Origin: a virus
DNA length: 50,791 bases
Strand: one strand, 5' to 3'
UHGV virus genome: UHGV-0205652
The notes under the pieces were generated by a model that saw only the letters and a program-made list of their open reading frames with translations, ran no database searches and was not told the DNA's origin. The stretch's first letter is position 1; each line of letters opens with the position of its first letter. A program made the translations under genes and the position numbers. Shown one piece after another: positions 1-50,696 of this stretch.

Positions 1-711
1 ATGAAAAAGAAACCGATCACAGAAGAACAAAAAGCTGATGCTCTTCGCCTGAAAAATATCTTTGAGGCAAAAAAGAAAGAGCTTGGCTTATCACAAGAAA
101 CCCTAGGCGATTCAATCGGCATGGGGCAGAGCGCTGTTGCTCAGTTATTGAATGGAGTAAACGCTCTAAACATAGAAAACGCGGCAAAGTTAGCTGAGGC
201 GTTACAAGTTACCGTTGATGAATTTAGCCCATCCCTAGCTAAAGAAATTAGAGGCATGTTTAAGGCTGTCAGCCCATTAAAAACACCAAGCATGGATGAG
301 AAATATCAATACCCTCTATTCACTAAGGTACAAGCTGGCGCTTTCTCAACAGAATTTAACTCATATACTCAGAAAGATGCTGTGTCGTGGATACCTACAG
401 CTAAGAAAGCCAGTGAGCGCGCTTTTTGGTTAGAGGTTGAAGGCCAATCAATGACAGCGCCACCAGGAGGAAAGCCAAGTTTTCCTGAAGGAATGCTTAT
501 CTTGGTTGATCCTGATGAAGAGGTTGAGTTCGGAGACTTCTGTGTTGCTCGTCTACTGAATGATGAGTTCACATTCAAGCGATTGATTAGAGAAGGTGGA
601 GTTGAGTATCTAGAGCCATTAAACCCACGCTATGACCTGATCCCTATTAACGGGAACTGCACAATCATAGGTAAGGTAATCAAGTCACAATGGCCTGACG
701 ACACGTTTTAG
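1..711 (+). CDS. cI: CI-type prophage repressor (N-terminal HTH_XRE, C-terminal S24/LexA-like peptidase); Ala112-Gly113 autocleavage site, catalytic Ser (GQSM) and Lys (FKRL) visible
   Basis: Translation shows the HTH ('[19 protein letters not shown]'), an AG cleavage dyad at nt 334-339 and the S24 Ser/Lys dyad. The gene is divergent from cro across the window junction. It has no SD and sits 6 nt after a TAAAAT -10, so the mRNA is probably leaderless like lambda pRM-cI. Confidence 0.9.
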
Positions 712-2621: not shown

Positions 2622-3233
2622 TCATTTATTAAAATATCCAGTGAATTGCCTAACGCATTCTGAGTAATAATCGGGATTAATTATAAACTCATTGGTATGC
2701 CTCATACTCAAATGCTTTGACGAATCATGGAGAATGTCTTTATCCAACAGTGAGTTAATAACAGGGTCATTTCTCTTTCCACCTAGAAACTCCTTGCCAG
2801 TGTCAATGAACATGGCTAGGTAATCCTTTTCATCCTCAGAAAGGCTTGAAATAACAAATGATATTTTGTGCTGATTATTACGCTTTATTGATTTTAACTT
2901 TACGGAATTAATTATACCAAAAGTTAATAAATATATTCTTTTTGTTATATCTGAAAGAAAGAAGCTAACAGGAATAATAAAAAGAACAGCATTGATATTA
3001 TTTACCGAGCCAAAAATTGGCTTTGCGTTAAGAAAATCAAAGAATGATTCAGGTAAAAATAACCACAGACTGACCAGATATAACAACCACACCATAGTAA
3101 ACCTCAGTGAAACTTGGTTTTTCAAATAGGCAATCACTGCCTCAATCCAATTCGGCATGGTTGATAATCTCTTATTCTGTAGGGGTAAGTGGATTATAGC
3201 CGATTTCTCGCTGTAGGGGTACACGAGAACCAC
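2622..3233 (-). CDS. Membrane protein (2 predicted TM helices near the N-terminus, soluble C-terminal domain) encoded antisense to the pL operon; SieB-like superinfection-exclusion candidate
   Basis: Hydrophobic stretches 'MVWLLYLVSLWLFL' and 'AVLFIIPVSFFL'. The size (about 180-203 aa) and the position next to N resemble sieB of lambda and P22. The region is visibly AT-rich. No motif-level confirmation. Confidence 0.5.
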   Translation of the reverse strand: MVLVYPYSEKSAIIHLPLQNKRLSTMPNWIEAVIAYLKNQVSLRFTMVWLLYLVSLWLFLPESFFDFLNAKPIFGSVNNINAVLFIIPVSFFLSDITKRIYLLTFGIINSVKLKSIKRNNQHKISFVISSLSEDEKDYLAMFIDTGKEFLGGKRNDPVINSLLDKDILHDSSKHLSMRHTNEFIINPDYYSECVRQFTGYFNK

Positions 3234-9366: not shown

Positions 9367-9715
9367 ATACACCGAACTATCTGACTTCGAGATTAATAAA
9401 AAGGTTGCTGAAAAATTAGGACTGGCGTACGAAGTCACAAGGTACGGCGTGGTTACAAGGATGAGCAATAAAGAGCAGTGGCGTGAATTCAATCCCTGCA
9501 ACAACCCAGCCGATGCAATGCCGATTATTATTGAGAACAATATCTCATTGCACGCCCCTCACTTAAGGGAAGGCTGGATGGCTGAGTATACCGGTAGTGG
9601 TGACGATGTTAATGACGGGCTTCAGGCTGATTATTTTGATGCACATCATAAAAACCCACTACGCGCCGCTATGGAAGTGTTCTTAATGATGAAGGATGCG
9701 GAGAATGAGGACTGA
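9359..9715 (+). CDS. Phage protein, DUF2591-like
   Basis: The 'FNPCNNPADAMPII' motif is recalled from DUF2591 family members. This rests on memory, not a search. Confidence 0.5.
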   Translation: MNKYTELSDFEINKKVAEKLGLAYEVTRYGVVTRMSNKEQWREFNPCNNPADAMPIIIENNISLHAPHLREGWMAEYTGSGDDVNDGLQADYFDAHHKNPLRAAMEVFLMMKDAENED

Positions 9716-10250
9716 TTACGGAGGTAGCCATACACCAAAGGAATTGCGTGATAGATGGCAAACTCCCCTACCTTTATTCACGGCACTGGACGCTGAATTT
9801 GGTTTTTATTTAGATGCCGCTGCCGATAAAAATAATGCCCTCTGTTCTCATTACCTCACCGAAAAAGACGACTCGTTAAATTGCGACTGGGAAAGTTATG
9901 GTGCTATTTGGGTGAATCCCACGTACAGTGAAATTCAGCCTTGGGTTAATAAATCCGCCGAACAATGCAAAAAACAATTACAGCCTATCGTGATGTTAAT
10001 TCCTGCTGATACTTCTGTCGGTTGGTTTAATTCGGCATTAGAAACAGTTGATGAAGTGAGATTAATTACAGGAGGAAGAATTTCATTTATTAAAGCTGAA
10101 ACTGATAAAACTAAAAATGGTAATACTAAAGGCTCAATGCTTTTAATATGGCGACCTTATATTAAACCAAGAAAGATAATTAACACTGTCGATAGAGACG
10201 AGTTAATTAATATCGGCAATAAAATATTAAATGAATGGAAAATAGCATAG
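9696..10250 (+). CDS. dam: Phage DNA N6-adenine methyltransferase (Dam, T1-type family)
   Basis: 'TPLPLFTALDAEFGFYLDAAAD' and an NPTY (motif IV-like) signature as in phage Dam methylases. Confidence 0.75.
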   Translation: MRRMRTDYGGSHTPKELRDRWQTPLPLFTALDAEFGFYLDAAADKNNALCSHYLTEKDDSLNCDWESYGAIWVNPTYSEIQPWVNKSAEQCKKQLQPIVMLIPADTSVGWFNSALETVDEVRLITGGRISFIKAETDKTKNGNTKGSMLLIWRPYIKPRKIINTVDRDELINIGNKILNEWKIA

Positions 10251-23809: not shown

Positions 23810-23840
23810 TAAAAAAGAAAACCCTGCCAAAATGACAGGG
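23810..23840 (-). terminator. Rho-independent terminator closing the cargo island, just upstream of the TMP RBS
   Basis: The reverse complement reads CCCTGTCATTTTGGCAGGG + TTTTCTTTTTT. Confidence 0.5.
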
Positions 23841-23925
23841 TCTTATGCACAAAGGTATTAACTTGTATTTGTAGATGTTTGATAATCACAAAATAAAAAC
23901 ATTATTAGTTCTATTGCAAAGAGAA

Positions 23926-24282
23926 TTATCTCCTTTTTAAAATCTCTCTTATCTTTTCATGGTTTGTACCTTGCGGTGCTTGCTTATTATTCACATCACT
24001 ATCTTTTTTTGCTTTATTTTTTTCAGCTAGCTCAGTTAGGTATTTAGAGTTATCAAGAGAACCAAGTATGTGACTAGTATTCCTATCAATCGCTTCAACA
24101 ATGAAACCACACCCTGTAAATATAGCTCCTATCAATGCAATAAGGAGTGAAAGAGAGACATATGCCATTCCCTCTGCTGGGTTAAATTTATCGAAGTAAC
24201 TTGTTCCTGTAGTAGATGTCACATAGAAACCAAACACAACGCTTAATATTAATATAACGATGCCAACATACTTTAATCTCAC
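23926..24282 (-). CDS. Small membrane protein (2 TM helices, GTG start); last gene of the cargo cassette
   Basis: 'VGIVILILSVVFGFYV' and 'YVSLSLLIALIGAIFTGCGFIV'. Confidence 0.55.
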   Translation of the reverse strand: MRLKYVGIVILILSVVFGFYVTSTTGTSYFDKFNPAEGMAYVSLSLLIALIGAIFTGCGFIVEAIDRNTSHILGSLDNSKYLTELAEKNKAKKDSDVNNKQAPQGTNHEKIREILKRR

Positions 24283-24375: not shown

Positions 24376-25044
24376 TTATGATACCAATTCTGATGAGAAC
24401 AATCTTTCTAAAAACTTTTTATTTATTAAATATTCTATATTTTCATTTAGATATAAAAATGAATACTTTATGTCTTCTTTATTATTAATTAGCAAAAAAT
24501 TATCTAGTGACGACTGCACTGAAACGAGGTCATTACATAGATTTCTGCTTTTTTTCTTTTCAAAAATCTTGGATGAATCAATGTATTTATAGCTTTTTGA
24601 TACATCAATATCAGCCTTGACATTGTTATGAACGTAATTACATGCATCAGAATATACCCTAGTAAGTGCGCTAACACCGTCTACACCTTTATATCTTTCT
24701 TTAAACTCACTGAACATCCTTGTAACACCGATCTCATCATCATTATCTTTGTTCAACAAGAATCTAATTGAATTTTCAATGCATGACCTTATATTAAAAT
24801 AAAAGTATCTATCTTCATTTTTTTTTATTGCTGAAATACAACCTAAAAAATCATAGATGACGCTTAATAAGTGTCTATTACCTCTCAAAGATTTTTCGTG
24901 AATTATCTTCAAAAAAATAGACTTTTTTACCGCTGATATTAACGAGTCAACAACATATTGGTCAGGAATTACTTTTAGGTCTTCTTTGAACTTGGACACT
25001 GTTCCCAACACGTTGTAAGGGTCAATAGTAAGGAAGTTACTCAC
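24376..25044 (-). CDS. Uncharacterised alpha-helical protein (222 aa), cassette gene 3
   Basis: No recognisable motif. The start overlaps the upstream gene stop by 8 nt. Very AT-rich. Confidence 0.65.
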   Translation of the reverse strand: MSNFLTIDPYNVLGTVSKFKEDLKVIPDQYVVDSLISAVKKSIFLKIIHEKSLRGNRHLLSVIYDFLGCISAIKKNEDRYFYFNIRSCIENSIRFLLNKDNDDEIGVTRMFSEFKERYKGVDGVSALTRVYSDACNYVHNNVKADIDVSKSYKYIDSSKIFEKKKSRNLCNDLVSVQSSLDNFLLINNKEDIKYSFLYLNENIEYLINKKFLERLFSSELVS

Positions 25045-25456
25045 CCCTAAACCCCTTTATCCACTTTGAGATACTTTCTGTTGTAGTATTTTTACCTTTT
25101 CTCTTTTTATTTTCTTTCTTTTTCGCTTCTAAAGCGATATCGTTGATTGGCAGCTGATCTAGCTTTTCATAAATGATATTGACAACAGTATTTTTAGCTG
25201 TGAAATGATTTCCATCAGAATATTTTCTAACTATATCTTTCGCAAGCCTAGAGAACATAAGGGTTCTTGAGGATACAACGTATCTTTTATATTCTATCTT
25301 AAATGCATCTTTAATAAATTCACTCAATTCAAAATTCGACTTAAAAATTTCTTTGGAAAATATTACTAAAGATAGAAACCCGATCATAAACTCAAGCGAT
25401 TCAGAATCTTTTAGTTCCATTAATTTCTTTTTAGTTATTAATTTATTCTGATTCAT
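25037..25456 (-). CDS. Uncharacterised protein (about 139 aa) with a C-terminal Lys-rich tail, cassette gene 2
   Basis: Start placed at the MNQNK ATG with SD AAAGAGG. The track ORF extends upstream into the ParA gene. Confidence 0.55.
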   Translation of the reverse strand: MNQNKLITKKKLMELKDSESLEFMIGFLSLVIFSKEIFKSNFELSEFIKDAFKIEYKRYVVSSRTLMFSRLAKDIVRKYSDGNHFTAKNTVVNIIYEKLDQLPINDIALEAKKKENKKRKGKNTTTESISKWIKGFRGE

Positions 25457-26294
25457 CATCAACCTCTTTAAGCTTAGCCTCGAGTTCCGTACATATTCTA
25501 TCAATGATTTCTTTAGACTGAGAATACGCTGACGCAAAATTTAATTGCTGACCAACCTGTAAATCCCTAACCTTTGAAAAATGATTCTTGAAGAAATATA
25601 GATCCCTGATTCCTTTTTCGGTTTCTATAGCCGTCTTAATTGCTCTGGTCTTCTTGGTCAATCTTTTTGGTGCAGTATCGGTATAAATAACACCCAACGG
25701 CTTTATTGTAAGTCTTTGATCTCTAGCCAGCTTAGAAACAATTGATAGCAAATTGTTACTCCCTAATACTGAATACTGATCTATTCTCATTGGCATTATA
25801 TAATGTGTAGATGCCATTATGGACGCTTCGGTATACATCGAAATGGTAGGCGGACAATCAATAAAAATATAGTCGTAGATTTCTCTTAACTTATTGTCTT
25901 CAATGAAATTTCTTATCCTAATCAATCTAATTGTATCTACCGTGTTATGCTCAAACATTATGTTTATATCACCAGGGATTATATCTAGATTTGGATATAC
26001 ACTGTAAATAACATCTTCTTTTTTTAATACTGCATCTTCATCATATATAGAAGCATTTACTTCAAATATTCTCTTGATTGTCTTTCTTTGTTTTACTAAA
26101 GATAAGTACTCACTTATTTTATCATGCTTACCCATAAAAGATTGTGTTGCATTAAACTGAGGATCAATATCTATTATTAATACTTTTTTATCCTTATAGT
26201 TTGCTAAATACTCACCAATACTAATACATAGAGTGGTCTTTCCCACCCCACCCTTCATATTAATAAAGCTAATTACAGGCGCATTCATGTGCAA
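25443..26294 (-). CDS. ParA/MinD/Soj-family P-loop ATPase (small type-Ib-like, no N-terminal HTH)
   Basis: Deviant Walker A 'KGGVGKTT', then 'IIDIDPQFN' and 'IFIDCPP'. Confidence 0.85.
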   Translation of the reverse strand: MHMNAPVISFINMKGGVGKTTLCISIGEYLANYKDKKVLIIDIDPQFNATQSFMGKHDKISEYLSLVKQRKTIKRIFEVNASIYDEDAVLKKEDVIYSVYPNLDIIPGDINIMFEHNTVDTIRLIRIRNFIEDNKLREIYDYIFIDCPPTISMYTEASIMASTHYIMPMRIDQYSVLGSNNLLSIVSKLARDQRLTIKPLGVIYTDTAPKRLTKKTRAIKTAIETEKGIRDLYFFKNHFSKVRDLQVGQQLNFASAYSQSKEIIDRICTELEAKLKEVDDESE

Positions 26295-26388: not shown

Positions 26389-26646
26389 TCACTTTTTACC
26401 CTCATTCATTTTCTTGATAGTTTCCATGAACAGTTCTTTGAACTTTTCAGGATCAAGCTGTGACAACTCATTTAAGTTTTTATGGGTGCTATCCTCATCC
26501 ACTGCAGACTGAAGAATCATAACCATTTCAGCATTAAGAGATCGCCCATTCTTACTTGCCCTTTGCATTAACTTTTCCTTCAGAGTATCAGGCATTCTAA
26601 GGCTATAAGGCGTTATATCTCTTATTCTCGTATTTTTTTGTGACAT
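26389..26646 (-). CDS. mnt: Mnt-like ribbon-helix-helix repressor
   Basis: 'YSLRMPDTLKEKLMQRASKNGRSLNAEMVMILQSAV' aligns with the recalled P22 Mnt 'FNFRMPMEVREKLKFRAEANGRSMNSELLQIVQDAL'. Divergent from arc-ant. Confidence 0.8.
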   Translation of the reverse strand: MSQKNTRIRDITPYSLRMPDTLKEKLMQRASKNGRSLNAEMVMILQSAVDEDSTHKNLNELSQLDPEKFKELFMETIKKMNEGKK

Positions 26647-26759
26647 ACAACCACCAGTAAAGTCATTGTGATATCACAATATAGTCAATTATTCGTTGAC
26701 TATATAGATTCACATTGATATCTTTGTGATGTCACATAGACACATAAAAGGATGAAGAT
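26647..26759. promoter_or_regulatory. Divergent promoter/operator region: perfect 14-bp palindrome TTGTGATATCACAA (26666-26679), a 24-bp palindrome ATAGTCAA-N8-TTGACTAT (26681-26704) and the imperfect TGTGATGTCACA (26725-26736)
   Basis: Palindromes read directly from the sequence. The arrangement parallels the Mnt and Arc operators of P22 immI. Confidence 0.5.
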
Positions 26760-26921
26760 ATGAATACCAATAAAAAAACAGGAAAATTTCAACTCAGATT
26801 AACAGAGGTGTTAAAAAGTAAAGTGGTAGAACTCTCAGCGAAAGATGGTATTTCGCAAAACTCAATAGTTAATCAAGCGATAGCTTGGTATGTGAAAGAA
26901 AGAGAAAAACGTGTCAACTAA
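26760..26921 (+). CDS. arc: Arc-like ribbon-helix-helix repressor, 53 aa (MNTNKKTGKFQLRLTEVLKSKVVELSAKDGISQNSIVNQAIAWYVKEREKRVN)
   Basis: Translated by hand; below the track cutoff. It has the beta-strand 'FQLRL' then two helices, like P22 Arc, and lies directly upstream of ant. Confidence 0.7.
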   Translation: MNTNKKTGKFQLRLTEVLKSKVVELSAKDGISQNSIVNQAIAWYVKEREKRVN

Positions 26922-26990
26922 AACAGCGAAGCCCCAACTATTTGCGGTAGCTAGGGCTTCTAATTTGTCAGAAACTACGGAGTAACCGAC

Positions 26991-27824
26991 ATGACTAGTG
27001 TATCAACAATTAACGTACCTTTCCACGGTAACAACCTGTATGTAGTAAATTTCAACGGCGAACCATATGTACCAATGAAGCCAATAGTTGAAGGCATGGG
27101 GTTAACTTGGCAATCTCAATTTGAAAAGCTAAAACAAAGGTTTAGTAAAGGGATCACGGAAATCGTGATACCTTCAAAAGGCGGTGAGCAATCAATGCTT
27201 TGCCTAGCTCTCCGTAAACTTGCAGGCTGGCTTCACACTATCAGCCCTAACAAAGTCAAACCAGAGATCCGCGATAAAGTAATCAAGTATCAAGAAGAGT
27301 GTGACGACGTACTTTATGAATATTGGACTACTGGTGAAGTTAAGAAAAAACACAAATCAACTGTTCAAGAACGCAACCCATTAAAGAATGCTGTTAATCT
27401 ACTGGTTAGTAAGAAAGGCATTATGTACCCAGAAGCCTATTCTCTTGTTCACCAGAAATTTAATGTTAGTAGCATTGAAGAGCTAACAGCAGATCAGATA
27501 CCCGATGCGGTTGAGTATATTCACAAGTTCGTTCTTGAAGGTGAATACATTCCTAAACAGGAAGAAAATATACTTTTTGAGCCAAATCAAAACTCAATCA
27601 CTGTAACCATACCCAAAGAAGGCAGATGGTTAGTTTCTTATAAAAATGGAAAGCAACAAGTAGTTAGCGTTGATGGTCATAACGTTGTCAGTGTTGAATA
27701 CATTCAAAAATTACAACGTGACTCTAATGCTCTTATTGAGTTACTGCAAAACTTCCGCTTACGCACCCAAGTTATGCAAGGTGAGAAAAGCGGAGATATT
27801 TTAAACACTCCGTTAATTGCATAA
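26991..27824 (+). CDS. ant: Antirepressor (P22 Ant-like N-terminal domain plus C-terminal domain)
   Basis: N-terminal 'INVPFHGNNLYVVNFNGEPYVPMKPIVEGMGLTWQSQ' is a typical AntA/P22_AR N-terminal domain. Follows arc. Confidence 0.8.
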   Translation: MTSVSTINVPFHGNNLYVVNFNGEPYVPMKPIVEGMGLTWQSQFEKLKQRFSKGITEIVIPSKGGEQSMLCLALRKLAGWLHTISPNKVKPEIRDKVIKYQEECDDVLYEYWTTGEVKKKHKSTVQERNPLKNAVNLLVSKKGIMYPEAYSLVHQKFNVSSIEELTADQIPDAVEYIHKFVLEGEYIPKQEENILFEPNQNSITVTIPKEGRWLVSYKNGKQQVVSVDGHNVVSVEYIQKLQRDSNALIELLQNFRLRTQVMQGEKSGDILNTPLIA

Positions 27825-27880
27825 CAACAGTAGTAACGCCCAAGGATGGGCACTTATGTTATATAGATAGTGATGCAAAA

Positions 27881-27945
27881 CAAAGCAAAAAGCCTCAGTT
27901 AAGAGGCGTGGTGAAATTTGGGCAACAAAAAACCCACCGGAGTGG
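27881..27945 (-). terminator. Two tandem - strand terminators (GCCTCTTAACTGAGGC+T5; CCCACTCCGGTGGG+T6) after the DUF3800 gene
   Basis: Hairpins and T-runs read on the reverse complement. On the + strand the same structures follow ant. Confidence 0.5.
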
Positions 27946-27946
27946 G

Positions 27947-28771
27947 TTAGTTGAATTTATTTAAGAGCTCAGTCAGCTTTTGAGTCGACGCTGGTCTGTC
28001 TATGTTATTCCTGACATTACTTCGCTTCTGCGCTCTGGCTATTCGGTCACCAAAATATTGTTTAAATAATATATATTCTGGCTTACTCTCAGGCTCAACA
28101 TCAAAGTAAGATATCTTTCCATACAGTGCACAAAGCCAATCTGCACATTGAATAGTCTGATACAATTTACTGTCTACCTGAACAGGTGCTTCCAGCAGCT
28201 GATACTTATCGCATTGATGCATTTCATATATCGAACGCTTTACAATTTCTTTTCTTATCTCATGGTCATCCATAAAAATAAGAAACTGAGCGTCTTGGCC
28301 CTTGAATTCATCATCAAGCCTTTTAATAACTTCTTTTAGACTGGATTTGTATACGCCTTGAGGATTGTGCTTCTCTATTCCCCTTTTTTTAGCTTCTCCA
28401 ACATAAAACAAAAAACCACCCATCTTGGTTATATTGTTTATAATTCGTCCAGTGCTGCCAATCAGAAAGCTTTTATAATTTTTTAAGTTGGCTACAGAAT
28501 ACTGTTTTGACCCTTTCTTTTCCCAGTTAGACAGTTGAAATTTTCCACCAGCCTCTTCTTCTTTCTTCCTTGCGGCAGGAATCTCATATTTACCAAAAAG
28601 ATTTTGTTTTAACTTAAAGAAGAAATGAGAGAAGTCTCGAACTCTATTAGCAGGAATTACAAACCCACCTAGTCCGAATACTGGGTGAGTGTTATGAAGC
28701 TCATGATCATGTGATATGAATGGACCGTCATGGCCAAATTCATCTAGATATACTATGTATAACTGAGACAT
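27947..28771 (-). CDS. DUF3800-family protein (predicted RNase H-like fold)
   Basis: N-terminal 'LYIVYLDEFGHDG' matches the Y.D.SG signature recalled for DUF3800. Own promoter and double terminator. Confidence 0.65.
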   Translation of the reverse strand: MSQLYIVYLDEFGHDGPFISHDHELHNTHPVFGLGGFVIPANRVRDFSHFFFKLKQNLFGKYEIPAARKKEEEAGGKFQLSNWEKKGSKQYSVANLKNYKSFLIGSTGRIINNITKMGGFLFYVGEAKKRGIEKHNPQGVYKSSLKEVIKRLDDEFKGQDAQFLIFMDDHEIRKEIVKRSIYEMHQCDKYQLLEAPVQVDSKLYQTIQCADWLCALYGKISYFDVEPESKPEYILFKQYFGDRIARAQKRSNVRNNIDRPASTQKLTELLNKFN

Positions 28772-28869
28772 GTTATTTTTCTATAGGTTTAAATACACGG
28801 AAGCCCGACTATAAATAGCCGAGCCCCGGAATCAGCAGCAGAGAATTTTCACCCCGCCTCTGACTTAAA

Positions 28870-28899
28870 AGTCTATTACCTTGAGGTTAATGGTGTCAA
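28870..28899 (-). promoter_or_regulatory. Candidate sigma70 promoter for the DUF3800 gene (TTGACA-18-TAGACT on the - strand)
   Basis: Hexamers read on the reverse complement. Confidence 0.3.
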
Positions 28900-29103
28900 G
28901 ATCTTTTTATTGCAGAATTACTCATTAAGCGTATAATTCGCGCCCCGTGAGATTGTCATATTTTGTATTATGTAACGAATTCAATTACCTAACCCTCACT
29001 TCATACCAAACTTTTATATATATCTTCCTCTGACAGAATGACACAAACTTGCTGTTCGGCTATCTTCGGACAAGGTTGGGATTACCGCTTTCAGAAAACG
29101 AAC

Positions 29104-50049: not shown

Positions 50050-50376
50050 TTAATGCGCCTCGGTTGCTCCAACAATCGGGGCGTTTTCTTTTGTTCTCAT
50101 CTGAGAAAGCTCACCTATTTGTTTCCATAAAAAGCGGTATTCTTCCTCTGATATTTTCCTCTCACCTTCCATCACAAAATCGACTATCCCTGATGCGACT
50201 AATGTCTCGCATATCTCAGGATATTTTTCAGTTCTGCGTAGGATAGTTGAGTCATGAACACCTAATGTTTTAGCGACCACTGACTGAGTTTTATTTCTCA
50301 ATGCCTGTAATGCCGAAGCCATCAAGTGATTTGAAATGAATTTATTAAATTGTTTGCGTGTATTTGTGTATTCCAT
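50050..50376 (-). CDS. cII: CII-like lysogeny regulator (HTH)
   Basis: Position after cro and nutR. HTH 'QSVVAKTLGVHDSTILR'. A TTGC-N6-TTGT box in its 5' end, as for lambda pRE. Confidence 0.55.
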   Translation of the reverse strand: MEYTNTRKQFNKFISNHLMASALQALRNKTQSVVAKTLGVHDSTILRRTEKYPEICETLVASGIVDFVMEGERKISEEEYRFLWKQIGELSQMRTKENAPIVGATEAH

Positions 50377-50510: not shown

Positions 50511-50696
50511 TTATTTACCTGATGGGAACGGTTTAACTTCTTCAGCTTCAACTGTTCCATCTTGTTTTCTGATAACGAAAATATTTCGTTTTTTTAAAAT
50601 TGCTTTACTTATCGCACTTTGCCTAACACCTAACAATTCAGCCGTTTTGTGTTGTCCTAGCTCAGTAGCAAATTTAGTTAATGGGACTCTTTCCAT
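50511..50696 (-). CDS. cro: Cro-like repressor (61 aa HTH)
   Basis: Start at MERVPLTKF with SD AAGGAGA (track ORF extended to 50747). HTH 'TAELLGVRQSAISKA'. Confidence 0.8.
   Translation of the reverse strand: MERVPLTKFATELGQHKTAELLGVRQSAISKAILKKRNIFVIRKQDGTVEAEEVKPFPSGK

Follow-up and report, generated by a model that had tools for sequence, protein, structure and literature searches.

A probable P22 immI-type second-immunity module among the tail genes of a lambdoid Proteus phage

The virus genome UHGV-0205652 (50,791 bp; the whole stretch analyzed, referred to here as the window) carries a group of small regulatory genes at 26389-27824, in the midst of its tail genes, and the question raised by this locus is whether it constitutes a second-immunity region of the immI type known from phage P22, with its repressors Mnt and Arc and its antirepressor Ant. 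A first-pass annotation, made from the letters of the DNA, had proposed that the complete logic of P22 immI is present. We consider it highly probable, on sequence grounds, that a lambdoid Proteus siphovirus has at this locus a working second-immunity module of the immI type, composed of mnt, arc, a sar-like antisense RNA and ant. This reading follows from the homology of the four parts, and from a gene order, strand arrangement and spacer lengths that match those of the annotated P22 immI. The parts, their homology, their layout and their conservation are described directly, and the mechanism is reasoned by analogy with P22.

Parts and layout of the module

The three open reading frames and the 113-bp gap lie exactly where the first-pass annotation had placed them. 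The mnt-like gene (26389..26646, minus strand) encodes an 85-amino-acid (aa) ribbon-helix-helix repressor with a Mnt-type C-terminal region. It is followed by the divergent control region (26647..26759; 113 bp), which contains the predicted promoters and operators, and then by two genes on the plus strand. Of these, arc (26760..26921) encodes a 53-aa ribbon-helix-helix repressor, forms the first gene of the ant operon and has the sequence AGGA 6 nt 5' of its ATG, and ant (26991..27824) encodes a 277-aa antirepressor with a P22_AR_N domain. Between them is a candidate sar-like antisense RNA of ~70 nt (26920..26992, minus strand), and 3' of ant is a terminator-like hairpin (27838..27851, plus strand), which marks the right edge of the conserved cassette.

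The four parts have the same order and strands as in P22, with mnt divergent from arc-ant, a putative repressor site over the start (+1) of the candidate ant promoter (Pant), predicted overlapping divergent promoters, and a candidate promoter for the antisense RNA within ant. The proposed immI logic is thus backed by homology for Mnt, Arc and Ant, and the module is more complete than had been proposed because a candidate sar-like antisense RNA is also present. Its differences from P22 concern both setting and detail. P22 is a podovirus, and its module lies between gene 16/sieA and the tailspike gene, whereas here the module lies between tail chaperone and tape measure genes of a lambda-like Proteus siphovirus. 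The control region is 113 bp, compared to 90 bp in P22, and has an extra upstream Mnt-type site; the putative operators have the form TGTGA-NN-TCACA rather than GGTCCACGGTGGACC; Arc is very divergent; and Ant is without P22_AR_C.

Judged by its alignments, the 85-aa protein is a full-length Mnt homologue. It matches the Pfam Arc family (PF03869; 37 bits), aligns with the P22 Mnt structure over both the ribbon-helix-helix and the C-terminal parts (PDB 1MNT; E=3.3e-7, residues 9-77), and is 36% identical to P22 Mnt by BLASTP (E=6e-12). The protein is 94-95% identical in P. mirabilis ATCC 29906 and a P. vulgaris strain, and its Providencia orthologues are 72-73% identical, with conservation of the N-terminal strand RIRDI(T/I)PYSLRMP. 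Between the window and Providencia, the nonsynonymous divergence (dN) of mnt is 0.16 and the synonymous divergence (dS) is saturated, which is indicative of purifying selection. The label "partition protein ATPase" is attached in PHROG and RefSeq to P22 mnt (NC_002371) and its homologues (PHROGs 795/2685); this name is an annotation error for the mnt family, and is propagating to new genomes.

The Arc-like reading frame that the first-pass annotation had picked out ahead of ant, as one that had been overlooked, is borne out by homology at the profile level and by purifying selection. The 53-aa protein matches PHROG 582 ("Arc-like repressor"; 7.5e-9), P22 Arc matches the same PHROG families, and the annotated Arc-like repressor of Salmonella phage Oslo is 43% identical. 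When P22 Arc is left out of a profile made from the 53-aa family, the best PDB matches of that profile are the P22 Arc chains (E=2.4e-5 to 3.6e-5, positions 1-48 on 1-48); a PDB search with the single sequence gives a weak antitoxin match only. The protein and P22 Arc are equal in length (53 aa) and 23% identical in an ungapped alignment, with L12, R13, G30, S32, N34, S35 and Q39 invariant. At the level of sequence profiles, and at that level only, the 53-aa protein is an Arc homologue. Of the two alignments proposed in the first-pass annotation, that to P22 Mnt is therefore obtained at full length, while that to P22 Arc is obtained by family profile and fails pairwise. Comparison with the Providencia orthologues (78-85% identical) gives dN/dS values of 0.06-0.09 with synonymous sites near saturation, from which we conclude that arc is a translated gene under selection. 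It is 98-100% identical in 27 IMG/VR contigs, and NCBI genomes already call it, under the name "HicB family antitoxin".

The arc-ant spacer (69 nt, compared to 68 nt in P22) putatively encodes a sar-like antisense RNA, the fourth part of an immI module. The Rfam sar model (RF00262) matches at 26925-26992 on the minus strand over its full length (1-68; 24.1 bits, E=0.19). The RNA is complementary to the spacer, to the ant Shine-Dalgarno sequence (GGAG, 26979-26982) and to the ant start codon, and includes a terminator-like hairpin followed by a T-run (26960..26928, minus strand), whose stem (GAAGCCC...GGGCTTC) is nearly identical to that of P22. A 76-nt sar-like transcript folds into two hairpins (-29.4 kcal/mol, z=-4.9), and the Providencia and P22 copies, folded singly, give the same two hairpins with a changed sequence in the 5' stem (UGUCGG/CUGACA, UAGUUCG/CGAGCUA and UGUUGGU/ACUGACA for the set). 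RNAalifold of six sar sequences recovers the terminator hairpin alone, as the 5' stem was out of register in the alignment. Scores under this Rfam model are 97.8 bits for P22, 87.7 for E. coli phage 611R6, 69.4 for E. coli phage PhiR12_5 and 30-34 for Providencia prophages, and from this gradient we consider the copy in the window to be the far end of a continuous series.

A candidate promoter for this RNA, Psar (26997..27025, minus strand), is located in the first 12 codons of ant, with a -35 box of TGGAAA (27025..27020) and a -10 box of TACACT (27002..26997). With respect to the start codon of ant, this -10 box is in register with the one annotated for P22 Psar (TATACT). In Providencia the form TACA(C/T)T is kept even in copies with an ant body from another family, and the first few ant codons, which hold this box, are conserved where the rest of the gene is swapped.

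Ant has strong matches to Pfam P22_AR_N (E=2.1e-44) and to PHROG 524 ("anti-repressor Ant"; 2e-79), and its residues 1-224 align with P22 Ant at 48% identity (E=4e-71); the domain match and this identity uphold its proposed designation as a P22-type antirepressor. The middle part of the protein is conserved, and the last ~53 residues, past residue 224, do not align to P22 Ant. Among related Proteus contigs, similarity within ant ends at ~27557-27566, near residue 190, and 27557-27824 is divergent; since similarity stops at this point among close relatives, the C-terminal ~85-90 residues of Ant form an exchangeable part. The divergent C-terminus is seen in loci L019, L030, L032, L036 and L039. 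In Providencia, the antirepressors of the same cassette have an ORF6N N-terminal domain, with or without P22_AR_C, and P22_AR_C is present in some of these relatives.

Operators and promoters of the control region

Two palindromes had been proposed for the control region. The first, TTGTGATATCACAA (26666-26679), is indeed perfect, and a repeat search extends it to a perfect 16-bp palindrome, ATTGTGATATCACAAT, in the mnt leader, which we refer to as putative operator A1 (26665..26680). The second is present as ATAGTCAA-N7-TTGACTAT at 26681-26703, with a length of 23 bp rather than the 24 bp given for it, and occurs once in the window. It lies within palindrome B (26679..26705), which has 10-bp arms (ATATAGTCAA-N7-TTGACTATAT), the right arm including the Pant -35 box. 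The first-pass annotation lacked a second copy of the A motif, putative operator A2 (TGTGATGTCACA, 26725..26736), which extends across Pant -10/+1 and in three related contigs reads TGTGATATCACA, a perfect copy of A1. It likewise lacked a partial third copy, TTGATATC (TGATATCT), at 26715..26722, which overlaps Pant -10, lies 12 bp upstream of the A2 centre and makes up a direct-repeat family with the others. Perfect matches to TGTGANNTCACA (TGTGA-NN-TCACA) number exactly two in the 50,791-bp window, both of them inside the 113-bp control region, compared to ~0.06 expected for the whole window (an estimate from base composition).

A consensus scan finds candidate Pant at 26696..26724 on the plus strand, with TTGACT separated by 17 bp from an extended -10 box, TG-n-TATCTT; transcription is expected to start near 26731, within A2. 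This layout is kept in Providencia (TTGAC(T/A)-17-TG-n-TA(T/C)CTT), and likewise in 611R6, phiv205-1, PhiR12_5 and P22. The candidate mnt promoter, Pmnt (26701..26730, minus strand), was read from the sequence as ATCACA, 18 bp and TATATA, and the aligned Providencia counterpart is GTCACA-18-TATATT. It overlaps Pant face to face, as does the annotated Pmnt/Pant pair of P22. We set aside a leftward promoter with the left arm of B as its -35 box, the -10 box of which is poor and not conserved, and prefer ATCACA-18-TATATA. No LexA box (CTGT-N8-ACAG) is seen on reading the control region.

Comparison of the control region relies on Providencia copies and distant phages. The Proteus relatives are 98-100% identical there, too similar to be of use for covariation, and blocks of non-coding sequence conserved between Proteus and Providencia are informative because arc and mnt have reached saturation at their synonymous sites. 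A1 is conserved in Providencia as TTGATATCACAAT, and the partial A copy as TTGATA(T/C)C. For A2, the Providencia sequence is TGTGACATCAC(T/A), i.e., TGTGA(CA)TCAC, in which the half-sites are largely retained and the central dinucleotide is altered. B is represented there by the skeleton ATAT-N3-CAA-N7-TTG-N3-ATAT, with symmetry at 7 of the 10 arm positions.

The assignment of repressors to sites is based on a comparison of nine loci. The motif TGATATCA, or TGTGA-NN-TCACA, is found together with the Mnt strand P-Y-S-(L/V)-R-M-P, in the window, in Providencia and in 611R6; the last of these has the same Mnt strand residues and the same A motif as the window, yet a different Arc type. In phiv205-1, which has the Arc type of 611R6 and the Mnt strand P-T-T-V-R-I-P, the motif becomes TTTGATATCAAA. 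KP12 has the Arc strand of the window (F-Q-L-R-L) but another Mnt type, and is without the A motif; Oslo, which is of the KP12 type, has partial matches only, and the motif is likewise absent from the P22, Edno5 and PhiR12_5 loci. Since in these loci the A motif goes with the strand residues of Mnt rather than with the type of Arc, the A sites are probably Mnt sites, and A1 and A2 are most likely the Mnt operators. The position of A2 is also that of the annotated Mnt operator of P22, over Pant +1.

B overlaps the Pant -35 box and the candidate Pmnt -10 box. Each of its arms contains ATAG, which is also found in both half-sites of the annotated P22 Arc operator. By position and elimination, B is the candidate Arc operator, an assignment that we make with low confidence. 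An Arc operator of P22 geometry (TAGA boxes spanning 13 bp) was not found between Pant -35 and -10.

Presumed action of the module and alternative readings

The presumed target of Ant lies outside the module. cI (1..711, plus strand) encodes a 236-aa protein with HTH_3 and Peptidase_S24 domains by Pfam, and is of the S24-cleavable type; it is 99% identical to the cI beside an identical cro region in contig L063. cro is located at ~50511-50696 and cII at 50050-50376. The first-pass annotation had placed the module as a layer of lysogeny control beyond cI/cro, and cI and cro are both present. SOS induction is probably independent of Ant, because cI carries the S24 domain. The immunity region is itself mosaic, in that locus L061 has a 100% identical cII, yet unrelated cI and cro.

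The steps of the mechanism are drawn from the P22 background (PMC2629481, PMC3121763, PMC11016777). In the lysogen, Mnt made from the leftward promoter would bind the TGTGA-NN-TCACA sites. Bound at A2 and the adjacent partial copy, it would cover Pant -10/+1 and keep arc-ant off, and A1, in the mnt leader, would probably serve for autoregulation. Upon infection or loss of Mnt, Pant would fire and give a burst of Arc and Ant. Arc would then close Pant, and probably Pmnt as well, most likely through the palindrome that overlaps the Pant -35 box. The antisense RNA, starting just within ant, would pair with the ant ribosome-binding site and thereby reduce the translation of Ant. Ant itself would bind the lambda-cI-like repressor (1..711) non-covalently and so tune the establishment of lysogeny; it could also, independently of RecA, derepress its own prophage or related ones. 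Like its P22 counterpart, the module would basically be a second layer, which tunes establishment and permits action in trans.

Several observations weigh against this reading. Pairwise BLASTP of the 53-aa protein to P22 Arc gives no alignment, and the protein misses the Pfam Arc model. Ant has no P22_AR_C (no Pfam match at E<=0.1), and the biological role of Ant is not settled even in P22 (PMC3121763). The sar match is under the Rfam gathering score (24 vs 43 bits). Pmnt is a weak consensus match, which the promoter scan of the region did not pick up. The operators were assigned from four or five independent lineages; B is just partly symmetric in Providencia, though the Arc strand residues are conserved there, and its TAG cores span 21 bp, compared to 13 bp in the P22 Arc operator. 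Given the selection on its genes and their conservation, it is unlikely that the module is a decayed remnant.

Two other readings would give one or the other repressor gene a different identity. The 53-aa reading frame might encode the antitoxin of a toxin-antitoxin pair, of the HicB or another ribbon-helix-helix type, or be no real gene, as could be suggested by its NCBI cluster name ("HicB family antitoxin") and by a match to Pfam HicB (PF05534) of 21.3 bits, barely over the cutoff of 21. This match covers the HicB model at its C-terminal end only (profile positions 16-51 of 51), the neighbouring genes show neither HicA nor any other toxin domain, the gene next after the 53-aa gene is always that of an antirepressor, the family profile finds P22 Arc, and the fixed length of 53 aa together with strong purifying selection is that of a real gene. 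We regard this identity as exceedingly improbable, and the HicB reading is rejected for its missing toxin partner and its C-terminal-only match. The 85-aa protein might instead be a ParG-like centromere-binding partner of a ParA-like ATPase, with the palindromes as a partition site. The cargo 3' of mnt (24376..26294, minus strand; not a core part of the module) does encode a ParA-like ATPase of 283 aa (Pfam AAA_31/CbiA), along with 166-aa and 222-aa proteins. The ATPase gene begins 95 bp 3' of mnt, in the same orientation, the interval has no terminator-like site, and the best PHROG matches of the 85-aa protein are those named "partition protein ATPase". That name is an artefact, being attached to P22 Mnt itself, to which the 85-aa protein aligns over its full length. 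Moreover, about 20 of 38 related loci hold mnt-arc-ant without the ATPase, the phage encodes an integrase, and the ribbon-helix-helix gene is upstream of the ATPase gene, while in type Ib systems the ATPase comes first. In the comparison of Proteus with Providencia, identity is 95-98% for the ParA-like cassette and 73% for Mnt, and the two thus have separate histories. Partition is accordingly very improbable, and we reject it on distribution and divergence.

A third alternative leaves the regulation of the module as described and changes the role of its product: Ant would not act on its own cI, but in trans on other prophages or superinfecting phages, or in another role, such as the modulation of late-operon read-through into the tape measure gene. 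In favour of this alternative, P22 can be induced, and can follow its lytic or lysogenic pathway, without Ant, the role of which is incompletely understood (PMC3121763). Also in its favour are the Ant C-terminus, unrelated to P22 Ant and exchanged among close relatives, the Providencia cassettes, which drive antirepressors with another N-terminal domain (ORF6N), and the S24-type cI, which is presumably inducible without Ant. On the other side, Ant is 48% identical over 224 residues to P22 Ant, which binds C2 and other lambdoid repressors (PMC3121763, PMC11016777), and tight repression in three layers best suits a protein that is harmful to lysogeny. We therefore think it distinctly unlikely that Ant leaves its own cI alone, and retain cI as its presumed target.

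Setting, mobility and related systems

The window is a complete, circularly permuted genome of a lambdoid phage (~50.8 kb), with Proteus as its host, the genus in which the 94-95% identical Mnt is found. Position 1 is the start codon of cI, and the final 95 bp are the cI-cro operator region. The minus strand carries the replication genes, terminase, head genes, major tail protein, tape measure, M, L, K, I, J, tail fibre and integrase; the lambda-like tail background described in the first-pass annotation is matched by PHROG assignments of J, I, K, L, M, tape measure and major tail protein. The early-left region contains a SieB-type superinfection exclusion gene (2622-3233, minus strand) and a Dam methyltransferase gene (9696-10250, plus strand), together with genes for an ERF recombinase, SSB and an RNase T-type exonuclease; all of these are usual accessory genes of lambdoid phages.

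The module lies in a low-GC island (23.9-29.1 kb; 31-33% GC vs ~40% elsewhere) that is bounded by the tape measure gene and by a DUF6246 gene, which follows the major tail gene. The block 26389..27851 (or to ~27557) is 93-100% identical in about 30 Proteus contigs, and both of its flanks vary; it ends at 27851 in 20 of the 29 related Proteus loci. A 100% identical cassette occurs in a different tail module (Phage_tail_3, TAC_4, DUF1799 and a lambda-type tape measure), also at the chaperone/tape measure junction, and Providencia prophages have the same mnt/arc/sar in the same slot. A 1.46-kb cassette that is 98-100% identical amid differing flanks and tail modules agrees with the mosaic acquisition that had been suggested: the cassette is a mobile unit, located between tail assembly chaperone and tape measure genes, with variable cargo on either side.

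Some smaller features of the island and its borders may be described here. Most of the Providencia loci examined have an extra 81-aa Arc-family gene, plus-strand and close to the DUF6246 end of the island (L047 8547-8792; L049 7691-7936; L051 8090-8335; L054 7079-7324), of which there is no counterpart at 28772-29103 of the Proteus window. A 118-aa reading frame at 23926-24282 (minus strand) has no family match; a gene of similar size is found at this place in Oslo and Providencia, and it may be a tail chaperone-type gene that is split from DUF6246 by the island. Just upstream of the tape measure gene (23811-23901, minus strand) is a terminator-like structure with a sub-threshold match to the Rfam rnk-leader (28.6 bits).

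The cargo differs from locus to locus on both sides of the cassette. On the mnt side it may be the ParA-like three-gene cassette, an HATPase/MPN635_N protein, small proteins or KilA-N. The exact sequence of the ATPase is found in 563 blocks of a public collection, and adjoins mnt/arc/ant in all six of the places shown. The 166-aa and 222-aa proteins have no Pfam or NCBIfam match, and a PADLOC scan of all genes of the island matched no known defence system; for the ATPase, its sole result was a short P-loop match to the candidate model PDC-M28B. This cargo is probably co-transcribed with mnt, and the ParA-like cassette could be an accessory or defence unit expressed in the lysogen. On the ant side, the cargo may be absent, or may be DUF3800 (as here), SocA_Panacea, a YafO toxin, Trypsin_2/SEC-C, DUF2335 or DUF4760, and this slot behaves as a second cargo hotspot. 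The DUF3800 protein (27947-28771, minus strand; 274 aa, PHROG 26069) is encoded convergently with ant, and terminator-like hairpins are found on both strands between the two genes (27892-27948).

A broader interpretation is that mnt, the operators, arc, sar and the first ~10 codons of ant make up a portable regulatory chassis, with the cargo as a new exclusion or defence system on the mnt transcript. The chassis would sit at the chaperone/tape measure junction in no fewer than three unrelated tail modules of Proteus and Providencia siphoviruses and drive interchangeable antirepressor bodies (P22_AR_N or ORF6N, with or without P22_AR_C), and the variable cargo 3' of mnt may be expressed in the lysogen from the Mnt promoter. 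We put this forward tentatively, as rather unlikely.

The rarity that the first-pass annotation had implied was overstated. The arrangement is neither new nor rare, being known in Oslo, PhiR12_5, phage 2851 and other Shiga toxin (Stx) phages, and in many Proteus and Providencia prophages. In P22-like phages (epsilon34, ST64T, HK620 and others), it corresponds to the "ant moron", a variable insert in the late operon that usually consists of mnt/arc/ant and phage-specific accessory genes, such as sieA in P22 (PMC2629481). The present cassette is likewise flanked by variable cargo, but the ant moron is found in podoviruses at the gene 16/tailspike junction, rather than in siphoviruses at the chaperone/tape measure junction, and its cargo differs from the ParA-like triad and DUF3800 protein found here.

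Closer in position is the ES18-like siphovirus vB_SosS_Oslo of Salmonella, in which gp17-gp19, annotated in 2012, occupy the same slot (in the order major tail protein, DUF6246, Mnt-like, Arc-like, Ant, tape measure). The Mnt-like protein of Oslo is of another subtype (125 aa), its operators differ (GGTTCTAGAACC and TAGCACCA...TGGTGCTA), and its arc and ant genes overlap, which leaves no room for a sar-type RNA. In the lambda-like E. coli phage PhiR12_5, the lambda H-M-L-K-I cluster contains mnt, arc, sar (69 bits, over the Rfam threshold) and ant; the insertion is between tail genes L and K, while here it is between the chaperones and H, and Mnt and Arc have a common strand type (P-L-G-I-R-I-P) and a common operator motif, TGTAGCA. 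At the same L/K position, phage 2851 and many Stx phages carry arc-ant.

Functionally, the antirepressors of Gifsy/Fels prophages and Tum of phage 186, which are repressed by host LexA and induce prophages with non-cleavable repressors (PMC3121763), resemble Ant in that a small protein inactivates the primary repressor by binding, and can act in trans. They differ from it in that control here would be exerted, by analogy with P22, by phage-encoded Mnt, Arc and antisense RNA, and in that the cI of this phage has an S24 domain. A literature search on antirepressors of Proteus prophages found nothing. What is particular to the present module is the divergent Arc, the new operator specificity, the very divergent sar and the cargo.

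The value of these findings is modest, and the understanding of P22-type second immunity is unchanged by them. They correct an annotation, as the 53-aa "HicB antitoxin" gene of NCBI Proteus genomes is an Arc repressor gene by its profile, and they extend the sar family to divergent copies in Proteus and Providencia siphoviruses that fall under the Rfam threshold. They also provide a testable operator assignment for a putative new class of Mnt specificity, in which TGTGA-NN-TCACA is paired with the strand P-Y-S-L-R-M-P. For Proteus and Providencia phages, the immI cassette is a conserved anchor at the chaperone/tape measure junction, which may aid the mining of accessory and defence genes, and the ParA-like three-gene cassette, with the other variable cargo beside mnt, is the sole open lead.

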